DNA of 64,000 bases from the NCBI GenBank assembly GCA_965204285.1, contig OZ241980.1, positions 160,235 to 224,234 on the forward strand, read 5' to 3'. This document shows positions 36,699-45,964 of this stretch, piece after piece (within the stretch, counting starts at the first letter, position 1; each line of letters starts with the position of its first letter). A model generated the notes under the pieces. The model did not search any database and was not told where the DNA came from. It worked only from the letters and a program-made list of their open reading frames with translations. This stretch comes from Candidatus Poribacteria bacterium (GTDB lineage: Bacteria > Poribacteria > WGA-4E > WGA-3G). The translations under genes and the position numbers were made by a program.

Positions 36699-37013
36699 CT
36701 ATAGCAACTTTAAACGATCTTGCCGATCCTCCCAATCTGGTAAATATGCAGACATATACCCCTTAAACAGCTTACCGTGATTCGGTACAAGCAGATGCAC
36801 CAATTCATGCACAATCACAAATTCTGTCAACGTTTCTGGTAGATTAAGCAGCTCCGTGTTGAGTGTCAATCTGCCGTTGGTTGATATAGATGCCCATTTT
36901 CGCCGCATTTCACGTAAATGGATTTCCCGCACCTTAACACCGATGCGGTCTGCCCACTGCCATACTGCACCTTTCAAATCTATAGGACAATCCAATCTAT
37001 TTTGTGAATTCAT
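36699..37013 (-). CDS. Short YgjP/DUF45-type (M48-like) zinc metallopeptidase-fold protein
   Basis: HELVHLLVPNHGKLF motif (HExxH...NH). The ATGA overlap with the hsdR stop suggests translational coupling. At 104 aa it covers only the C-terminal half of typical family members. Confidence 0.7.
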   Translation of the reverse strand: MNSQNRLDCPIDLKGAVWQWADRIGVKVREIHLREMRRKWASISTNGRLTLNTELLNLPETLTEFVIVHELVHLLVPNHGKLFKGYMSAYLPDWEDRQDRLKLL

Positions 37014-39883
37014 ACGCGTTCCAACTTTAGCAATTTGTTTGTTGTTTCGATCAGATCGTCTGCTCCAACAGTGGGGTTTAAGGTTTTATAGAGCCTAATC
37101 CGCAACTCTATTTTTTGATGTGCGTCCCATTGATAGTCGGGAAATTTCTCAAATTCTTTATCAATAGCTTGTGCTTGTCCTGGCGTGAAATTTTCTATAA
37201 CGTTTTTGAGTTCTCTATAAATCGCAAAGGAGTTATTATCCAAATTCACCTCATTACGTTCTCTGGCAGCACTTGAATATTCCTCAGCTAACTTCCTGAA
37301 CTCAGCTAAAATTTCTTCCGTTTTTGACTGACGATCTTCATAAGCCTCTATAGCTGCTTCTGCGCGTTCACCAATAGATCTTAAAAACGGTTGGGCTGTG
37401 CCTTCATCTACTACGGTCTGACGTAGTACTTTCCGTAAATTCAGCACCTTAACCGTATCAGATGAATCGCTCTGCTCTATTTCCTTCAAAGTGGTTTCGT
37501 TCAACTCATAAACAGCGTTGGGTAACTCAAATAGATTGCCTTCCGTATGTGTCTTTAAGAGTTCCTGCGTTTTGGTGGTTAACTCCTTATCTACGTAAAT
37601 TTGCTCGGTATAAGCGTTACGAATTAACCCGTATAGCGATGCAAGTGCTTGATAATCCTCTATAAATTCATGTAAGAAAGCATCAGGAGAAAGAATATTA
37701 TAGAAATTTTGCACCTGTTTGAAGAACGTAAAAAATGCTTCCCGAACATCCTTGTCCTCAAAACGTTCTATTGCTCGATCTTTCGCTTTGTCGTCCGAAC
37801 CTGTAGTAAGCGGCAGATACTCCTGTGCATCTTCACACATCAACTTCGCAAAAGCCGCTTTGAGTACGTCAATGTTCTGAATTATACTCTTTACTTCGTC
37901 AGAATCGAAGGCGAGTGCTTTTTCCAATTTCTCAAAGATGCCGACAAAATCTAATACAAACCCGGCAGGTTTTACCAATCCGTCCTCATCTTCATAAGGT
38001 CGATTGACACGGGCAATTGCTTGTAACAACACATGGTCACGCATCGGTTTATCAAGGTACATGCAGTAAAGGATTGGTGCGTCAAACCCAGTCAACAATT
38101 TTTGGGTTACAATCAGGATTTTCGGTTGTTCGTTTTTGTCAATGAATTTCTTACGAATTTCTTTCTCTTGCTCTGGTGTGTGGTGGAACGATTTCATCAA
38201 CTCGGTGTCGTTATTATTGTGAGAATAGACGACCTCCGAATATTCTGGTGGTAGGTAATTATCCAGTGCCTGTTTATATAATGCACACGCCTCGCGGTCT
38301 ACACCGACCAGAAACGCCTTGAATCCCATCGGCTCAATGCGTGTTTTGAAGTCTTCGGCAATAAATTTGGCAATTCCCTCTATTCTGTCGAGGGATTTCA
38401 TCATCACTTTTAGCTCAACAGCGCGGTCAAGAATAGCGTTGAGTTCATCAGGATCACTAATGCCTTCAGTTTCTGCAAGGTTTAGGAATTCCCGATTTAG
38501 TACTTCTGGATCAACCCGCAAACCGGTTGGGGCAAGCGCGTAATGCAACCGCACAGTCGTACCATCTTCAATGGATTCTGCAATAGCATATTTATCAAGA
38601 TATCCCTGTTCATCGTCTTTGCCGAATACTTTGAAAGTCCCTTCACCTTTAGAAAGTTTATCAATTGGTGTTCCAGTAAAACCGATATATGTTGCATTGG
38701 GAAGGGCAGCCATGAGGTAATTTCCAAAGTCCCCGCCTGTCGTTCTGTGTGCTTCGTCAATCAGGACGATAACGTTTTTACCTGTGTTAAGGTTTGCGGG
38801 TTTCTTGTCAAACTTGTGAATCATGGACACGATTAAACCACGGTGATCGGATGCTAAAATTCTCTCTAAGTCCTCCTTGCTCTGTGCAACTTCAAGCGTG
38901 GTGATGCCGTAAGCGGTGATATTTCTAAAGAGTTGGCTTTCCAGTTCATTGCGGTCAACAATCATTAGCACGGTAGGCTTTTCAGACTGTTCTCCACCGC
39001 GCAGGAGTCGTGAGGCAATTGTTATCATGGTGAGAGTTTTACCGCTACCTTGCGTATGCCAAACAAGCCCGCGCGTTTTGTTCGGATCGTTGACGCGATC
39101 AATAACTTTTTCTACAGCACGCGTTTGGTGTTGACGCAGCACAACTTTGGTGAGTTGGTCGTCTCGGTCCTGGAATATGATTAACCGCTGCAGCACTTGC
39201 AGAAAACGTTCCCGGTCGAAAAAGGTTTTTACTTTCTGCTCATAGTTTTTACGTTCATCTGTTTTCCAGTTAAACAGATTTTTGCGATTGGTGTTCCACG
39301 TTACACTATAGAAAAAACCGTGTAGATGCGTGACAGCGAAAAGTTGTGCAGTGGTGAACATTTCAGGCGTTTCGCGATGGTAACGACGGATCTGATCAAC
39401 ACCGAGTGCCAAACCGTCCCGCTTGTTAGTATCTTTCGTCTCTACAACTGCTACCGGTATCCCGTTAATCAAGAATACAACATCGGCGCGGTTGGTGTGG
39501 ACAACACCTTTCTGTTCCCATTCATCAGTAACATGAAACAAGTTATTGTCGGGGTTCTCAAAATCTATCAGGGTAACGTTGCGTTGGCGGTTTTCACTGT
39601 GAACAAAAGTTGACTCTTTACCGCGCATCCAAGATAGTGCTGTCTGGTTATCTTCAAGTGTTGATTTGAGCAAACCGAGCTTCCGCATAACGTCCGCACA
39701 ATTGGATTCGTCTACGACTCCTTTGTTGAGTTTCAAGAGTTGCGCTTGCAGGACATCAGTAAAATAGCGCGCGGCGGTATCACCACCACGCATGCGCATG
39801 GCATCTGATGGCGAAATTCGCTGCCACCCGATTTCATTGGCGTATTCGAGCATTGGCTCTTGGACTGCGGAACGTTCAGACAT
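37010..39883 (-). CDS. hsdR: Type I restriction enzyme R subunit
   Basis: N-terminal PD-(D/E)xK nuclease region (ADVVFLINGIPVAVVETK). SF2 helicase motifs are present (HTQGSGKTLTM, VLIDEAHR, FTGTP, LIVTQKLLTGFDAP). Length is 957 aa. Confidence 0.92.
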   Translation of the reverse strand: MSERSAVQEPMLEYANEIGWQRISPSDAMRMRGGDTAARYFTDVLQAQLLKLNKGVVDESNCADVMRKLGLLKSTLEDNQTALSWMRGKESTFVHSENRQRNVTLIDFENPDNNLFHVTDEWEQKGVVHTNRADVVFLINGIPVAVVETKDTNKRDGLALGVDQIRRYHRETPEMFTTAQLFAVTHLHGFFYSVTWNTNRKNLFNWKTDERKNYEQKVKTFFDRERFLQVLQRLIIFQDRDDQLTKVVLRQHQTRAVEKVIDRVNDPNKTRGLVWHTQGSGKTLTMITIASRLLRGGEQSEKPTVLMIVDRNELESQLFRNITAYGITTLEVAQSKEDLERILASDHRGLIVSMIHKFDKKPANLNTGKNVIVLIDEAHRTTGGDFGNYLMAALPNATYIGFTGTPIDKLSKGEGTFKVFGKDDEQGYLDKYAIAESIEDGTTVRLHYALAPTGLRVDPEVLNREFLNLAETEGISDPDELNAILDRAVELKVMMKSLDRIEGIAKFIAEDFKTRIEPMGFKAFLVGVDREACALYKQALDNYLPPEYSEVVYSHNNNDTELMKSFHHTPEQEKEIRKKFIDKNEQPKILIVTQKLLTGFDAPILYCMYLDKPMRDHVLLQAIARVNRPYEDEDGLVKPAGFVLDFVGIFEKLEKALAFDSDEVKSIIQNIDVLKAAFAKLMCEDAQEYLPLTTGSDDKAKDRAIERFEDKDVREAFFTFFKQVQNFYNILSPDAFLHEFIEDYQALASLYGLIRNAYTEQIYVDKELTTKTQELLKTHTEGNLFELPNAVYELNETTLKEIEQSDSSDTVKVLNLRKVLRQTVVDEGTAQPFLRSIGERAEAAIEAYEDRQSKTEEILAEFRKLAEEYSSAARERNEVNLDNNSFAIYRELKNVIENFTPGQAQAIDKEFEKFPDYQWDAHQKIELRIRLYKTLNPTVGADDLIETTNKLLKLERV

Positions 39884-39903
39884 GACTGTATTAAGTTGAA
39901 GTA

Positions 39904-41298
39904 TTATCTCTTACTGAGACTAAGCAATCGGAACTTAGTTTTGGTTTCATCTTTGGTTTCACCTATTTCAACAAATCCTTGTATTTCTGCAATATATGGC
40001 TTACTTACTGAAGCGGTCTTTACGATTTCAGTCTCATAGGCTTCCTCTATGATTTTTCCTTTAAAAAAGTCTTTTTCATACAAATTATCATCAGACGTTT
40101 CTATCTCAAATGATTTGGATCTGAGAGAGATACCAACTAATGTGCCCTGGATTCTGATTGTTTCTAATGTTTCTTCTTGAATTTTCTCAAGAATATCAAT
40201 AGCCTTTTTCATTTGCGATTGTGAAAGTTGGGCTGTTCCACCACGGTCTGGATGTGGTGATGTCCAAGTGAATTTGGTATCTATTACGGATTCACTAAGT
40301 GGTTTGAGAAACTCAGTGTAATCCTTTGCAACCCTTGGTCCAAATTCCTCCATGAGTGGTTTCAGTTGGTCTTGGTTACATCCAGAATTAAGGATTCTCA
40401 GAAATTCATTTATTGCATTTCCAAGATCAGAATCCAATAAACTGCCATATTCTGTTGATGCAAGTTGAATTTCAAATGAACCTGCACCGACTTCCAACAT
40501 TGAGATACCAAAGGGGTTTCGGATGTCTTCAAGTATCTTCTTATATGTTGAATTAACACATTTCGCACCGATTCTGTTAATTACTTTATGTAATCCGGTT
40601 AGAAAATTTCCTAATGAGTCGATCGGTGCTTCTGTTCTGGAAACTCCGGCATAGTTGAGAGCACATTTAAGAAGGTCACGAGCAATAGACGATGCTATTT
40701 CTTGTGGACTGCGGAGTGGTGGAAGTGTCTCGGTTTTTAGCCCAAGACGTTCACCATGCAGCGGGAGCATTTCCTCGGCGATTTGATTGGGCTGAATGAC
40801 TTCTAAAGATGGTTTTGTATGATCGACGTGTGGAATTCTTACCTGGAACAGTACGCCATTTTCAGCATCGGTGAACGCATTACGAAGGTCTATTCCACCA
40901 GATCGGATGTAATTTAAACGATCTTTAGAGATTCCAACACGAAGCCATGTTTTATCTTCATCGTTTTCACCAACGGTAACAAGGTAAAGATGACCTGCAG
41001 AGTCTTTACATGAAAAGAGAGCAGGATAGTCGTTATGTACATAGTTTTCGACGACTTTGTGTATGCCAAGATATGGAATATCGTATTGAATAGAGAGGTT
41101 TAAAGACGGTTGCGGAACATCGTCACCGTCTTCTTGTAATCCTTCAATATGAAATTCGATAGCTTCATCAATTAACGTTTGGACTTCTTCCAGTGTCTCA
41201 CCTACAGCTATGCATCCAGGGAGATCCGGCACATAAGCACCATAACTGCTATCGCCTTTCTCATAAATTACAACATAATCCATTCGTTTATCCCTCAT
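39904..41298 (-). CDS. HicB-like N-terminal domain fused to an uncharacterised domain of about 390 aa
   Basis: Residues 6-65 (MDYVVIYEKGDSSYGAYVPDLPGCIAVGETLEEVQTLIDEAIEFHIEGLQEDGDDVPQPS) match the HicB/UPF0150 fold signature. I recognise no motif in the remainder. The ATGA overlap with the hicA stop suggests coupling. The ORF ends 20 nt before hsdR. Confidence 0.75.
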   Translation of the reverse strand: MRDKRMDYVVIYEKGDSSYGAYVPDLPGCIAVGETLEEVQTLIDEAIEFHIEGLQEDGDDVPQPSLNLSIQYDIPYLGIHKVVENYVHNDYPALFSCKDSAGHLYLVTVGENDEDKTWLRVGISKDRLNYIRSGGIDLRNAFTDAENGVLFQVRIPHVDHTKPSLEVIQPNQIAEEMLPLHGERLGLKTETLPPLRSPQEIASSIARDLLKCALNYAGVSRTEAPIDSLGNFLTGLHKVINRIGAKCVNSTYKKILEDIRNPFGISMLEVGAGSFEIQLASTEYGSLLDSDLGNAINEFLRILNSGCNQDQLKPLMEEFGPRVAKDYTEFLKPLSESVIDTKFTWTSPHPDRGGTAQLSQSQMKKAIDILEKIQEETLETIRIQGTLVGISLRSKSFEIETSDDNLYEKDFFKGKIIEEAYETEIVKTASVSKPYIAEIQGFVEIGETKDETKTKFRLLSLSKR

Positions 41299-41483
41299 TG
41301 CTCAATATCTGCTTGTTTCAGAACGCTTTTGAGCGTACCTGTCGGGACATCTTTGCCCATTTTACCTGAAACTGTCACTTTCCCTTTTTTTGTTGGATGT
41401 TTAAAATAGCGATGACTGCCTCGTGACTTTGTATAATACCACCCATCATTTTCAATCAGTTTTATCAGTTCTCTAACCTTCAT
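41295..41483 (-). CDS. hicA: HicA-family toxin (mRNA interferase)
   Basis: MKVRELIKLIENDGWYYTKSRGSHRYFKHPTKKGKVTVSGKMGKDVPTGTLKSVLKQA is a typical HicA/YcfA sequence (GSH..F.HP...V.V..H...). Length is 62 aa. Confidence 0.88.
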   Translation of the reverse strand: MKVRELIKLIENDGWYYTKSRGSHRYFKHPTKKGKVTVSGKMGKDVPTGTLKSVLKQADIEQ

Positions 41484-41654
41484 AATCCAGTCTTCCTACA
41501 TGCTGCGGGAAAAAGCACGTAACATTCTCTAAAATATGTTATCAAGTTATTATGATTTGTCTCGTTTTGTGTTTCTCCGCACCAGCAGCAATAAGGTTAG
41601 TAGCAAGGACGCAGGGCACTGTCAGATTGCTTACCACCAAAACTGGATGTGTAT

Positions 41655-41684
41655 AGTATAGCATATTAGTAAAAAAGTTATCAA
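41655..41684 (-). promoter_or_regulatory. Candidate promoter for the hicA-hicB fusion-hsdR-DUF45 unit
   Basis: The minus strand reads TTGATA (41679-41684), an 18-nt spacer, then TATACT (41655-41660). The GTTATCAAGTT box recurs at 41541-41551. Confidence 0.4.
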
Positions 41685-41720
41685 GTTGTTAGTTGTCACT
41701 TAAACAAAATTCAGAATTTC

Positions 41721-42950
41721 TCATACGTTCATCTCAGCATCAATCAACGGCACGGCAGACCGCTGCCCTGTCATCAGTTCTTCAAGCATGGCGTGGAATA
41801 GTTCATCAATATGTTCAACTTCTTTTTCAAGGGCAGCAGTTTTTTCGTCAATTGTTCTAAAAATGTTGGCAATGGCACGTTGTTCGGGAAGTGGTGGAAG
41901 GGGTAAAACAAGATTGGTAAGTATAGGAATATTTACACCTCCCTTGAGTCTACCCCCTTTACTTTGTTCTATTTGTCGCCAATAGTTATTTGAACGAAAG
42001 TATTGCGCCAAAAAAACTGGTGACAGGTTGTCCTTCGTTTGCACACGAATTAGATATGACGCAAAAATTGCTTCTGGGCAATCGTCAATAATGTAAGCCT
42101 TTCCAGTCGTTGCACCAATTCGCGCAATTACTATATCACCAGTTTTTAACAAATACTTCTCCTTAGTTTTTTCACCACAAACGCAATAAGGAACCTTTTG
42201 CCAATTTACCGTATCATTTTGAATATCCGTAATTCTCAAAAATTTAGGACCTACAGCAGAATCATTGGCACTTTCAGTGTAACCGTAACCTGGTTTATAA
42301 CAGTAGTCGCCTAATCTCACAACTTCCCAACTTTCAGGCATCTCGCCGATTTCGGTTTGCTTGCGGGGTTCGCCTTTTGTGCCGTGTGAAAAGAGGTAAT
42401 CCATCAATGCTGCTTTGCGTTCACGCTCTAATACGATTTCGCGTTGTCGGGTGAATTTTGCTTCTTGGATTGTTTGTAAAGTGTGGGCGATGGCGCGTTG
42501 TTCGGGTAGCGGGGGAAGTGCTAAGGGCACCTGTTTCATCCTGCCCTGGTTCAGTTTTCCGCGAGTTGTTCCACTGATGAATGGTTTAATATTAAGATAA
42601 TTTAGTTGACACGTCAAAAAATAATTATGCGATAAGCCTTGTTTAGCCTGTAAAACATGGGCATGATTATTTACCCAAAATTTTCCACTCATCAAATAAG
42701 CTGAGTCTTCAAAAGAACCCCAGTACCCACCATCTTCAGCTAATAAAACATATTCACCATCAAATAGATAATTATTCACATGATCTACTACTCCATTTGC
42801 TCCGCAGTAAGGATATTCTCCTTGCATCTGTTGCCTTTGCGCCCCATTGATTGGGATTCTCTTTTTATTAAAGACATTTACTGCTTTTTCAAGTGGCATC
42901 ACTTTCCAATGTTCTGGGAAATTTATAACGTTCATTGCGTCCCTTTCCAT
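41721..42950 (-). CDS. hsdS: Type I restriction-modification specificity subunit
   Basis: Two target-recognition domains are separated by conserved helices, and LPPLPEQRAIA occurs twice. Length is 409 aa. An alternative start lies at 42935. Confidence 0.9.
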   Translation of the reverse strand: MERDAMNVINFPEHWKVMPLEKAVNVFNKKRIPINGAQRQQMQGEYPYCGANGVVDHVNNYLFDGEYVLLAEDGGYWGSFEDSAYLMSGKFWVNNHAHVLQAKQGLSHNYFLTCQLNYLNIKPFISGTTRGKLNQGRMKQVPLALPPLPEQRAIAHTLQTIQEAKFTRQREIVLERERKAALMDYLFSHGTKGEPRKQTEIGEMPESWEVVRLGDYCYKPGYGYTESANDSAVGPKFLRITDIQNDTVNWQKVPYCVCGEKTKEKYLLKTGDIVIARIGATTGKAYIIDDCPEAIFASYLIRVQTKDNLSPVFLAQYFRSNNYWRQIEQSKGGRLKGGVNIPILTNLVLPLPPLPEQRAIANIFRTIDEKTAALEKEVEHIDELFHAMLEELMTGQRSAVPLIDAEMNV

Positions 42951-42984
42951 TCAATCTAAGCGGACGGCACACGGCGTGTGCCTG

Positions 42985-44622
42985 CTACTTTGCATTCAAT
43001 CCAAGCTGCATCAAAACATCTTCCAATGCGTTATCCGCTTTTTCTCGGGCGATACTCGCTTCTGTTAAGTCTGCTAATATTTCATTCACTGCGCGGTGTA
43101 CAACTGCGTCACCGACATCTACAAACTGTGAAGGATTTAGATTGTAATCGGTTTTTTGTGCATCTTCAAGTGTGATAACGTTACTGAATTTCTCACGCGA
43201 TTCCCATGCTTCATATACTTCTGTTGCTGCTGTGATTCCTTCATCTGTTAGAACGTTTTTCGGTTTTCTTTTCTCAAAATACTGTGAGAGATTGATAAGT
43301 AGGAACTTTGCTTTGCGTTCCGCGGGTTTGTTGCGGTTTAGCAGCAATATAATGCCCGGTGCTGTTGTGTTATAAAATAGGTTTTCGGGTAGCAGGACCA
43401 CACCTTCAATTAGGTCTTTCTCAACAAACTTTTTGCGGATATCGCGTTCCCGATTGGTCTGTTTAGCACCGGAGCCTCGAGAGATTGCGCCGGTATCCAG
43501 CACAATTGCGGCGCGCCCGTTATCTTTCAGAGAGGCGAGCATGTGCTGCACCCATGCCCAATCTGCTGAGGAACTTGGTGGGATGCCGTCCGAAAATCGA
43601 TTCCAATTATCATTTTCATAAAAGTCATCGTCATATTCTTTCTGATTCCACATCGGATTTGCCAGCACATAGTCAAAACGTTGGAGTTTTGAATTGTCAG
43701 CCACGAAACGTGGATTGCGGAAGGTGTCGCCTATCTGAATATCTGCGCTGATAAAGTCGTGCAGAAAGGCGTTCATTTTTGCCATTGCGTAGGTTGTTGG
43801 CGTTAATTCCTGTCCAAATATATTTGGTGCTTGGCTTTTTTCTTGATCTGAATGCGTCTGCTCAAATTGTAATCTTCCTTTGATAAGCAAACCGCCAGAG
43901 CCACACGCAGGATCGTATATCGTGGTGTAGGGTTCAGGGTTAATAAGACGTGCCATTAACGCGCCGACCTCTTTCGGTGTGTAGAACTCACCCGCGCTCT
44001 GTCCTTGTCCTTCGGCAAACTTCCGTAACAGATATTCATAAGCACGTCCAAGGATATCTGGCTCCGCATCTTCAAGTCCAAGTTTATGTTGACTTATCAC
44101 CTCAATCAGTTTTTCGAGGCGATCATCGTCAATCAGTCGTTGTCCGCTCTGGCGTTCATTGAAATCTTCTACATCCAGTACACCTTGTAACCGAGGGTTA
44201 GCACGCGCAACCTCACGCATTGCATCGGTAACAAACTGTCCTAAGTTGCCGTCAGCGGGGTGGTTACGAAGTGCCTCCCAGCTATATTGCTGCGGAATAT
44301 AAAAACGCACAATCGGGTCGTCACGATCCTTTTCAAGTGCGTCCGCATGGTCTGCTTCAGTAATCTTTCTGGCAATTTCCTCATTTCCGAATTCTTCAAC
44401 GTGTTTTGCAAATTCGTCATCAAACACATCGGAGAGGCGTTTATAGAAGATTAGGGGTAAGATAAAATCCTTGAATTTTGGTGCGTCGGTTGCGCCGCGT
44501 ATTGCACAAGCAGCAGCCCATAGCCATGTTTCAAGTTTGGGTAAATCTAATTGTTCTTCGTTCTCGGCGAGAAGGGGAAGCGTGGTTTGGTCTGTATCTG
44601 TTGGGGACTTCTGTTTTGGCAA
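42985..44622 (-). CDS. hsdM: Type I restriction-modification N6-adenine DNA methyltransferase subunit
   Basis: HsdM N-terminal domain (LWAAACAIRG, FILPLIFYKRLSD). AdoMet motif I is IYDPACGSGGLL. Motif IV reads LANPMWN rather than the usual NPP(F/Y/W). Confidence 0.92.
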   Translation of the reverse strand: MPKQKSPTDTDQTTLPLLAENEEQLDLPKLETWLWAAACAIRGATDAPKFKDFILPLIFYKRLSDVFDDEFAKHVEEFGNEEIARKITEADHADALEKDRDDPIVRFYIPQQYSWEALRNHPADGNLGQFVTDAMREVARANPRLQGVLDVEDFNERQSGQRLIDDDRLEKLIEVISQHKLGLEDAEPDILGRAYEYLLRKFAEGQGQSAGEFYTPKEVGALMARLINPEPYTTIYDPACGSGGLLIKGRLQFEQTHSDQEKSQAPNIFGQELTPTTYAMAKMNAFLHDFISADIQIGDTFRNPRFVADNSKLQRFDYVLANPMWNQKEYDDDFYENDNWNRFSDGIPPSSSADWAWVQHMLASLKDNGRAAIVLDTGAISRGSGAKQTNRERDIRKKFVEKDLIEGVVLLPENLFYNTTAPGIILLLNRNKPAERKAKFLLINLSQYFEKRKPKNVLTDEGITAATEVYEAWESREKFSNVITLEDAQKTDYNLNPSQFVDVGDAVVHRAVNEILADLTEASIAREKADNALEDVLMQLGLNAK

Positions 44623-44948: not shown

Positions 44949-45964
44949 AACGTGAGTTTGATAAATAGTATTAGAAATTACATATCATTGGCAACTGATA
45001 GTCATTTTCTTTAAGTTCTTTATGTTTAAGTGAAGGTTTTTTCTGTAGACAGGTATAAGCGATCAAGGCAGCAACTGCATTCACTTGAAAGTTAACAGGA
45101 CTTCTATGGCGTGTGTGTTGTATCTCTGTCTGACTTTTAAGTTCTTTATTCACCGACTCAATAAGCATGCGTTTTTTTAGAAGTGCTGCATCAGCATCAG
45201 ACAAAGGTTCAGGTTTCATATTCTTACGCACCTTGTAAATGAGCGTCACACCGTCTTCTTGGAGTCTCTCCCGCAGATTTTTGTTGATATACCCTTTATC
45301 GGCAAATAGTTTGCCAAAGAGCCCTTGACACAACTGTGGCACGGTTCGCCTGTCATCTACGTTTCCCGCTGTCACCATAGCGGACAAGAGTTCACCTTGG
45401 TCGTTGATGACGAGATGTAGTTTAAACCCATAGAACCATCCCATAGAGGTTTTAGAACGCTCCGCATAATCAATGAAGACGCGATGCGCTGAAATCCGGC
45501 GATTGTGGCAGACCGGCAGCGGTGTTGAGTCTATGAAGGAAATGCCACGACACTTACCGAAACGGGTGTTGAGAAAAATAGACAACAAAACCAATACCTC
45601 TTGTGAGAGCTGCACAAAACGACTATAGCTGACAAGGTTCGGAAACGCCCAACGCAGATGGAAACAGACATAATCCTGATAATACGCTTTAAAGTTTTTA
45701 TACTGCTTCTGATGAAAAAGCACAAGTATCGTCATGACTTCGCTCGGATGAAGGCGCCGGGGTCTGCCCCGTGTGTTGTTTGTTCCGGGTATGTCCGGCA
45801 ACTGGTATTGTGCTTGATATTGTTCATACGTAAGAAAAAAGTCGTCAATTTCACAGAAAAGTGTTATGATATCCATCAGAGAACTCCTTTGTAAGTATAA
45901 TGGTATACTTCATCATAACAAAGGGGTTCTCTATTTACCAGTTTTTAATTATCAAACTCACGTT
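44949..45964 (-). mobile_element. IS982-family insertion sequence (1,016 bp)
   Basis: 16-bp perfect terminal inverted repeats: AACGTGAGTTTGATAA (44949-44964) and TTATCAAACTCACGTT (45949-45964). They are flanked by a 7-bp direct repeat AAAATCT (44942-44948 and 45965-45971). Confidence 0.85.
44971..45876 (-). CDS. IS982-family DDE transposase
   Basis: MDIITLFCEIDDFF...SEVMTILVLFHQKQYKNFKAYY...FIDSTPLPVCHNRR...GFKLHLVINDQGEL...ADKGYI is the typical IS982 pattern. Length is 301 aa. Confidence 0.88.
   Translation of the reverse strand: MDIITLFCEIDDFFLTYEQYQAQYQLPDIPGTNNTRGRPRRLHPSEVMTILVLFHQKQYKNFKAYYQDYVCFHLRWAFPNLVSYSRFVQLSQEVLVLLSIFLNTRFGKCRGISFIDSTPLPVCHNRRISAHRVFIDYAERSKTSMGWFYGFKLHLVINDQGELLSAMVTAGNVDDRRTVPQLCQGLFGKLFADKGYINKNLRERLQEDGVTLIYKVRKNMKPEPLSDADAALLKKRMLIESVNKELKSQTEIQHTRHRSPVNFQVNAVAALIAYTCLQKKPSLKHKELKENDYQLPMICNF

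Follow-up and report, generated by a model that had tools for sequence, protein, structure and literature searches.

A candidate defence cassette combining hicAB and PD-T4-10-like parts between hsdS and hsdR in Candidatus Poribacteria

A 64-kb stretch of DNA from a sponge symbiont of the uncultivated phylum Candidatus Poribacteria, hereafter the window, carries a type I restriction-modification (R-M) operon in which hicA and a 464-aa open reading frame (ORF) with a HicB-like beginning stand between hsdS and hsdR. The locus raises the question of what this pair is, and of whether it is a working partner of the R-M enzyme or a lodger in its operon. A preliminary description took the pair for an undescribed defence or sensor module, in which the RNase HicA was held in check by a large sensor-antitoxin linked to the R-M complex. 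A defence role is plausible, and the architecture lies outside the catalogued contexts of HicA; the C-terminal part of the long ORF is a homologue of a toxin family and not an unknown sensor. On balance the pair is considered rather probably to be a self-contained, horizontally exchanged defence cassette of the toxin-antitoxin (TA) type that is lodged in the hsdS-hsdR gap, a chimera of hicAB and a PD-T4-10-like A/B system, with the release mechanism described below. What is new is the arrangement; the defence parts are known ones, and the system does not form a class of its own. Gene identities in the window are based on matches to Pfam, NCBIfam and PADLOC. Relative loci are designated by L-numbers and relative proteins by P-numbers.

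HicA of the window matches the structures of Burkholderia pseudomallei HicA (4c26, 6g26) at 2e-11. Its H24, within the GSH motif of RGSHRYF, falls in the alignment on the position that is mutated in structure 4c26, B. pseudomallei HicA(H24A), and the histidine is retained in 12 of 12 intact hicA orthologues. The HicB-like fold that had been noticed at the start of the long ORF is a genuine HicB toxin-binding domain (residues 9-65), as determined by PF15919, by a match to the HicB N-domain of B. pseudomallei (6g1c; 2e-6, 40-43% identity) and by Foldseek (root-mean-square deviation 1.5 Å over 53 residues); Yersinia HicB3 (4p78) is also matched. No ribbon-helix-helix (RHH) or helix-turn-helix (HTH) DNA-binding domain follows it according to Pfam and NCBIfam, and the structure model shows beta, alpha/beta and oligonucleotide-binding (OB) domains only. 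With the DNA-binding domain of HicB gone, autoregulation must be absent or be achieved otherwise. Canonical hicAB systems (B. pseudomallei HicAB, Y. pestis HicA3B3; Gerdes classes 3 and 4) share with the pair the order hicA-then-hicB with overlapping stop and start codons, the GSH histidine and the HicB N-domain. They differ from it in their HTH or RHH domain, which is replaced here by a 395-aa defence protein without a recognisable autoregulatory domain. Fourteen genetic contexts of HicA have been catalogued (Gerdes 2024; PMC10865869); hicA followed by HicB-DUF6575 is neither among these 14 contexts nor in the supplementary tables of that paper, and no connection between HicB and DUF6575 was found in the literature searched.

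The remainder of the fusion protein, about 390 aa in which the preliminary description had recognised no known motif, is a complete member of a known family. Residues 75-245 match Pfam DUF6575 (3.3e-19) and residues about 222-425 match PDC-M63B of PADLOC (four models; best 7e-11, on residues 222-412). A HMMER search with residues 66-464 (399 aa, E<=1e-3) returned 1165 cluster representatives, nearly all of which are stand-alone proteins of 390-410 aa that align over their whole length, so that the ORF consists of a HicB N-domain plus an entire protein of this family, here called B. The B part begins at the natural N-terminus of the B proteins, and the fusion point is exact. S274, the serine of a GSF motif, is invariant in 122 diverse relatives. 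Among 122 diverse family members, 108 match PDC-M63B and 88 match PD-T4-10_B, and the DUF6575 N-domains of stand-alone paralogues match PD-T4-10_B at 3.5e-5 to 1.2e-4. PD-T4-10 was recovered by functional selection from E. coli ECOR65; its B protein is toxic and is neutralised by A, A could not be deleted, and deletion of B abolished abortive-infection defence against T4 (Vassallo et al. 2022; PMC9519451). Since the B-family member of this tested case is a toxin, the supposed large sensor-antitoxin is for the most part a toxin homologue.

A model of the B part alone, built on a deep alignment, reached a predicted local distance difference test score (pLDDT) of 91.6 and a predicted template modelling score (pTM) of 0.84, with an N-domain pLDDT above 90 (model m8e6b380f3888); the full-length fusion model reached a pLDDT of 72 and a pTM of 0.43. 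The B model is composed of a beta-rich N-domain, a conserved extended linker, an alpha/beta middle domain and a C-terminal OB-fold barrel. The barrel was matched by Foldseek to the OB folds of SSB and CusF (E 4e-3, target TM-score 0.5-0.69), the middle domain had no PDB match by fold or sequence, and profile searches of PDB sequences with the A and B families gave nothing credible. The fold search of residues 70-464 that had been suggested in the preliminary description thus recognised only an OB fold in a region that belongs to the DUF6575 / PD-T4-10B / PDC-M63B family. A viral structure library returned DUF6575 proteins from phages and prophages, tblastn of a phage collection gave no match, and a plasmid collection gave three DUF6575 matches. 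One protein of 710 aa (P0249) carries a CHAT (caspase-like protease) domain at the N-terminus of a B-family protein. Another of 529 aa (P0195) was considered as an A-B fusion and rejected, being a tandem duplication of the DUF6575 N-terminal beta domain.

Every stand-alone relative examined, about 14 in all (nine Poribacteria paralogues 43-57% identical to the B part, an Oscillatoria plasmid, an Arthrobacter plasmid and three metagenomic contigs), has directly upstream of B a conserved gene A of about 125-150 aa, which usually overlaps the start of B. The A proteins match PADLOC PD-T4-10_A at 8e-6 to 3e-3 and have no Pfam family and no PDB relative. They share the motifs CPP..A.P..G.vYRlv, CGLSV and HTPS..SHHxWW, in which the conserved Cys and His residues (CPP, CGLSV, SHHxWW) hint at metal binding or catalysis. 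A was also considered as a hidden relative of HicA or HicB; this was rejected with an hhalign probability against HicA of 0.1% and the lack of a Pfam family. A genes are often uncalled in the source annotations (L001 7592-7966; L026, L028, L029, L031, L034, L037, L045 and L047, as ORFs ending 30-60 nt before B). In the 64 kb of the window, no A homologue was found by hidden Markov model (HMM) search (profile of 13 A proteins, best E 0.98) or by tblastn, and hicA together with the HicB N-domain occupies the exact place of A, directly before B. The simplest reading is that a canonical hicAB recombined with a local A/B module, by which both the DNA-binding domain of HicB and gene A were removed. 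As the fused B is most closely related to A/B systems of Poribacteria, the chimera probably arose within this phylum.

The B part (residues about 70-464) shares with PD-T4-10 the DUF6575 family, a length of about 390 aa and the three-domain layout, and its close Poribacteria paralogues form canonical overlapping A-then-B pairs of which both components match PD-T4-10 models. The locus differs from PD-T4-10 in the lack of an A gene, in the HicB domain on B, in the hicA gene upstream, in the lack of a direct PD-T4-10_B score, in its position inside an hsd operon and in the phylum. With PDC-M63 it has in common the direct match to PDC-M63B and the embedding in a type I R-M operon; the PDC candidates had been identified through their embedding in BREX, DISARM or type I R-M systems ('guilt-by-embedding'; Payne et al. 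2024, bioRxiv 10.1101/2024.01.29.577857). The PDC-M63B models (about 310 positions) differ in lacking the N-terminal DUF6575 beta domain, and none of the six proteins of the locus matches a PDC-M63A model at E<=0.01. Without A, without the HicB DNA-binding domain and without a PD-T4-10_B score, the locus is a member of neither PD-T4-10 nor hicAB; it is a chimera of both.

The hicA gene and the long ORF are a tightly coupled pair with its own conserved promoter, as had been described from the sequence. A gap of 237 nt separates hsdS from hicA, hicA and the fusion ORF overlap by ATGA, hsdR starts 20 nt past the fusion stop, and the hsdR stop overlaps the start of the following ygjP-like gene, again by ATGA. 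No terminator-like site was found between the fusion ORF and hsdR in a scan of the window. Five codons into the fusion ORF lies a second in-frame ATG (MDYVV...) with a GAGGGA Shine-Dalgarno sequence, from which the database call of 459 aa starts; it may perhaps be the true start, and the coupling of hicA and fusion is the same either way. The promoter has a TTGATA -35 hexamer and a TG-extended TATACT -10 hexamer at a spacing of 18 nt and is conserved in nine orthologous cassettes, including one outside any R-M locus (L021). Promoter-like sites are not enriched in the region (20 found, 17.5 expected from shuffled sequence), so the support for the cassette promoter comes from its conservation in orthologues alone. 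The conserved leader of about 170 nt before hicA has no Rfam match, and RNAalifold gave -9.95 kcal/mol with a covariation term of -0.4, i.e. essentially no covariation support; a structured RNA or riboswitch was rejected on these grounds. The 11-mer AACTTGATAAC, which contains the -35 hexamer, occurs at the promoter (41680-41692, minus strand) and again about 140 nt downstream in the leader (41535-41550, minus strand); the repeat could be an operator pair or a second promoter.

Relatives of the locus were collected from one genome per GTDB species by a scan that recovers close relatives only, and their contexts were inspected by tblastn with the window proteins followed by frame-by-frame reading. 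All 52 loci found belong to Candidatus Poribacteria. About 25 species carry the HicB-fused form in the hsdS-hsdR gap of an orthologous hsd operon, with identities of 70-83% for HsdR, 79-90% for HsdM, 67-92% for the short YgjP-like protein and 36-63% for HsdS. The C-terminal tail of HsdS is conserved despite the low identity (...MTGQRSAVPLID.EM.V). In one lineage (L009-11, L021) hicA and the fusion, with the same promoter, are surrounded by housekeeping genes, and no hsd gene lies within 7 kb. None of the approximately 14 stand-alone A/B relatives lies inside an hsd operon; the one on the Arthrobacter plasmid lies 3.4 kb from type I M and S genes. The neighbourhood survey proposed in the preliminary description thus gave no hsd-embedded case among these stand-alone homologues of the C-terminal region. 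The census of R-M association in the wider family comprises five distant contexts only, and a profile search of the protein database with a diverse alignment mostly returned the same clade. In seven lineages hsdR starts 20-27 nt from the stop of the fusion, and in four lineages with a full-length fusion 0.7-2.1 kb of other genes intervene. The same gaps of orthologous hsd operons hold other cargo, namely Uma2, a NACHT-like protein, an AAA_15/AAA_21 ATPase, and FRG and HNH proteins. The hsd operon behaves as a variable defence island.

In full-length fusions the ratio of nonsynonymous to synonymous substitution rates (dN/dS) was 0.10 for the HicB N-domain and 0.27, 0.30 and 0.34 for the N-terminal, middle and OB domains of B (12 full-length copies, dS about 0.5, a frame of 446-465 codons kept). 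The ratio was 0.26 for hicA and 0.095 for hsdR; in two lineages with a broken hicA that of the OB domain was about 0.6. Every domain of the fusion, and hicA, is under purifying selection, which speaks against a dead chimera. Compared over the same genome pairs, dS was 0.2-0.7 for the cassette and 1.1-2.7 for the adjacent hsdR, i.e. 2-6 times lower in the cassette (0.23 and 1.35 between the window and L012). The G+C content of third codon positions (GC3) was 0.30-0.32 in the cassette as against 0.42-0.43 in hsdR and ygjP. The low dS relative to hsdR implies that the cassette has moved between Poribacteria on its own, apart from the R-M genes on either side; the route was likely recombination through the conserved hsdS tail and hsdR head.

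Decay was counted in 30 loci, the window included. The fusion is full-length in 14, with hicA intact in nine and broken or absent in five, and truncated in 16, with hicA intact in three and broken or absent in 13. Both genes are thus intact in nine loci, hicA is broken or absent in 18 of the 30, and the two genes tend to be intact or damaged together (Fisher p=0.024, with no phylogenetic correction). The HicB N-domain is present in all 12 loci with an intact hicA, as would be expected if that domain is the antitoxin of HicA. Several truncated fusion copies are joined to Uma2 and one (L032) to HsdR. The cassette has decayed where hsdR is intact, and vice versa (L008, L017). Low dS, low GC3 and decay in many lineages point to a self-contained mobile cassette in an hsd operon that collects other cargo.

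According to the mechanism proposed, the HicB N-domain would bind HicA stoichiometrically and silence it, while the B moiety would supply the infection-responsive part, as sensor, second effector or both. Infection would perturb or destroy the fusion protein, and HicA set free in this way would cleave RNA and arrest the infected cell. The hsd operon would have no part in the mechanism; it would provide a landing site for the cassette, and read-through transcription.

Several observations weigh against this account. The release mechanism is put together from the parts, the toxicity of HicA, its neutralisation and the activity of B being predicted from sequence and analogy. The fusion protein of the window gives no PD-T4-10_B match even at E<=10, and its link to PD-T4-10B is therefore transitive, via the family and PDC-M63B; the link to the E. 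coli system is one of PADLOC HMMs and not of direct sequence alignment. No catalytic fold or domain was recognised in B; Foldseek searches of PDB with the full-length and B-only models returned the HicB N-domain and the OB fold only. In the one native-host test, with E. coli NILS69, no defence activity of PDC-M63AB was seen (PMC12409345). The five lineages with a full fusion and a broken hicA, and the three with hicA and a truncated fusion, show that the halves are not strictly interdependent, and the decay of about half of all copies implies that selection for an intact cassette is intermittent. The fixed slot in about 25 species could also reflect selection for position rather than recombination via conserved flanks.

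If position were selected, the R-M enzyme itself might be the guard: the fusion protein would dock on the type I enzyme and keep HicA latent, and a phage anti-restriction protein inhibiting R-M would unleash the RNase in the manner of PrrC. In EcoprrI, prrC occupies this very slot between hsdS and hsdR (reviewed in PMC12707154), the slot has been kept in about 25 Poribacteria species despite a cassette history younger than that of hsdR, and the short distance to hsdR in seven lineages, with no terminator in the window, would allow co-transcription as for prrC. The intact cassette with its own promoter nevertheless occurs where no hsd gene lies within 7 kb, the stand-alone relatives examined lie outside hsd operons, other genes separate fusion and hsdR in four lineages, cassette and hsdR decay independently, and the conserved hsdS tail and hsdR head are homology arms that would explain the fixed slot. 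The cassette has no ATPase motif or domain and no anticodon-nuclease match (Pfam; PADLOC at E<=10, where PDC-M63B is the sole match of the fusion protein), and it is not confined to hsd loci, whereas PrrC is found almost exclusively in type I R-M loci and is silenced by the R-M enzyme. The analogy with PrrC drawn in the preliminary description therefore holds for the position between hsdS and hsdR and goes no further, given also the separate history and the unrelated cargo of the slot, and guarding by the R-M enzyme is regarded as very doubtful. Independent defence genes inside type I R-M operons are documented (PrrC, TgvAB, RloA-F; for PrrC see PMC12707154). TgvAB of V. cholerae VPI-2, an independent system merely residing in the operon, is a closer likeness than PrrC.

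Two other readings assign different roles to the parts. B could be the real killer, with the HicB N-domain, alone or bound to HicA, in place of A, so that HicA and HicB would form a lock on B and HicA would not be the executioner. B is the toxic and defence-essential part of PD-T4-10, A is missing here and is exactly replaced by the HicB N-domain directly before B, other N-terminal modules such as CHAT are fused to B-family proteins, and fused TA proteins regulated in cis exist (CapRel, EzeT; PMC10865869). B is tolerated without HicA, however, in the five lineages in which hicA is destroyed beside a full-length fusion; the catalytic histidine and the purifying selection of HicA are unexpected for a mere structural lock, and the low pTM of the full-length model lends no structural support to a contact of the HicB N-domain with B. 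Neutralisation of B in cis is accordingly held to be quite unlikely. CapRel-SJ46, EzeT and the hyperpromiscuous antitoxins of the PanA type resemble the fusion in that an antitoxin domain is joined to another module and one cognate partner is replaced; they are not homologous, and in the present fusion an antitoxin domain and a toxin from different systems are joined, so that the cassette has two putative toxins and a single antitoxin domain. The least probable reading, in our judgement a highly improbable one, is that an accidental deletion joined a hicAB addiction module to B, and that addiction to hicA now protects the HicB N-domain of a selfish or decaying remnant in which B is functionless. 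Truncation, frameshift or fusion to Uma2 or HsdR has affected half of the copies, the HicB N-domain is far more conserved than B, and PDC-M63AB had no measurable defence in the one test. Against a remnant stand the constraint on the B domains and the reading frame kept in 12 full-length copies, the spread of the cassette as a unit between diverged genomes, and the relaxation of the OB domain only where hicA is broken.

The features of the locus are listed in Table 1. The domain matches confirm each gene, with the order, coordinates and IS982 boundary given in the preliminary description, and all the genes lie on the minus strand. HsdM, HsdS and HsdR are all present and full-length, Pfam, NCBIfam and PADLOC matches covering each whole protein. 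The last gene, described as a DUF45 gene, belongs to that family and has kept the HExxH motif; it is a short form that covers the C-terminal stretch of the profile alone.

Table 1. Features of the hsd operon and its inserted cassette in the window, with cargo genes of relative loci
Feature	Position	Strand	Evidence
IS982-family transposase, island boundary	44971-45876	-	NCBIfam transpos_IS982 NF033520 3.7e-74; Pfam DDE_Tnp_1_3 8.9e-68
hsdM, type I methyltransferase	42985-44622	-	Pfam N6_Mtase 5.6e-96, HsdM_N 2.5e-26; PADLOC MTase_I 2.3e-177
hsdS, two target-recognition domains	41721-42950	-	Methylase_S 1.8e-41 in two stretches
Cassette promoter TTGATA-N18-(TG)TATACT	41684..41655	-	consensus scan 10/12 matches; orthologue conservation
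hicA leader, ~170 nt, second AACTTGATAAC copy inside	41484-41654	-	orthologue alignment
hicA, 62 aa, RNase toxin family with double-stranded RNA-binding domain fold	41295-41483	-	Pfam HicA_toxin (PF07927) 9e-22, profile positions 2-58 of 58
Long fusion ORF, 464 aa	39904-41298	-	HicB_lk_antitox + DUF6575 + PDC-M63B
Fusion residues 1-68, HicB N-terminal (HicA-binding) domain	41095-41298	-	HicB_lk_antitox (PF15919) on residues 9-65, 7.9e-14
Fusion residues ~70-175, beta-rich DUF6575 N-domain	40774-41091	-	Pfam DUF6575 3.3e-19
Fusion residues ~176-375, conserved linker and alpha/beta middle domain, invariant GSF serine	40174-40773	-	PADLOC PDC-M63B 7e-11
Fusion residues ~376-464 and stop, C-terminal OB-fold-like barrel	39904-40173	-	Foldseek
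hsdR, restriction subunit	37010-39883	-	TIGR00348 7.6e-147; HSDR_N, SWI2_SNF2, T1R_D3
Short YgjP/DUF45-like metallopeptidase, 104 aa (HELVH)	36699-37013	-	YgjP-like 4.9e-30, profile positions 115-205 of 207
Cargo genes (positions in the relative loci)	L013 986-5383, L015 1020-5441, L018 483-4880, L008 1426-5826; L024 609-2132 and 5293-6528; L012 5636-6754		

HsdM has the unusual motif IV NPMW that had been noticed in the sequence (window 43620-43660, residues about 320-330), where the solved homologue 7vru has NPPY/NPPF. It is kept in all eight orthologues that cover the motif (L008, L013, L015, L016, L039, L040, L041 and L046) and is not the canonical NPP[FYW]. The 34-nt spacer between hsdM and hsdS contains a perfect inverted repeat, GGCACAC-GCC-GTGTGCC (42955-42980, minus strand). 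The cargo in relative operons, found between hsdM and hsdS and before hsdR, comprises a NACHT-like/PIN-TPR-GreABC protein of about 1465 aa with a DUF5615 neighbour, an AAA_15/AAA_21 ATPase, FRG and HNH_4. A tandem-repeat block lies between the fusion and hsdR in L015 (9559-10221), and each of its frames encodes repeated peptides such as VGRNNLLVATVPC. In L041 (378 aa) and L046 (386 aa), and in P0070, P0085 and P0100, the fusion is cut after about 120 DUF6575 residues and continues into a Uma2 (PF05685) nuclease-like domain; elsewhere Uma2 is a separate gene just downstream of a full-length fusion (L008 9441-10016, L014 8455-9096), which suggests that the fusion-Uma2 ORFs came from a deletion joining two genes. 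L032 (7001-10504) has a single ORF of 1168 codons in which the HicB N-domain, the first approximately 130 DUF6575 residues and the entire HsdR are in frame; such an ORF could have arisen through a genuine deletion or through an error of assembly.

A bolder reading than the preferred one, a self-contained TA-type cassette in the hsdS-hsdR gap, is regarded as unlikely. HicA and the HicB N-domain would have functionally replaced A, two toxins unrelated to each other, the HicA RNase and a PD-T4-10B-type effector, would be interlocked on one polypeptide, and B, with its OB fold, would be the phage sensor that opens the lock. If this were true, PD-T4-10B-family proteins would be modular sensor-scaffolds that drive different effectors (HicA here, a CHAT protease in P0249), and the fixed slot between hsdS and hsdR might also couple firing of the cassette to failure of restriction.

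PD-T4-10 is an experimentally validated abortive-infection system, yet, to our knowledge, neither of its proteins has a recognisable activity. The Poribacteria cassette is a natural experiment on such a system, in which A has been swapped for the well-understood interface of HicA and the HicB N-domain, fused in cis and conserved across the phylum under purifying selection. It offers a concrete way into the control of B and into the question whether B is sensor, effector or both. With it the catalogue of HicA contexts grows to fifteen. The locus also illustrates clearly the exchange of a cassette at one fixed position within a type I R-M operon, which is relevant to approaches that identify defence genes through 'guilt-by-embedding'.

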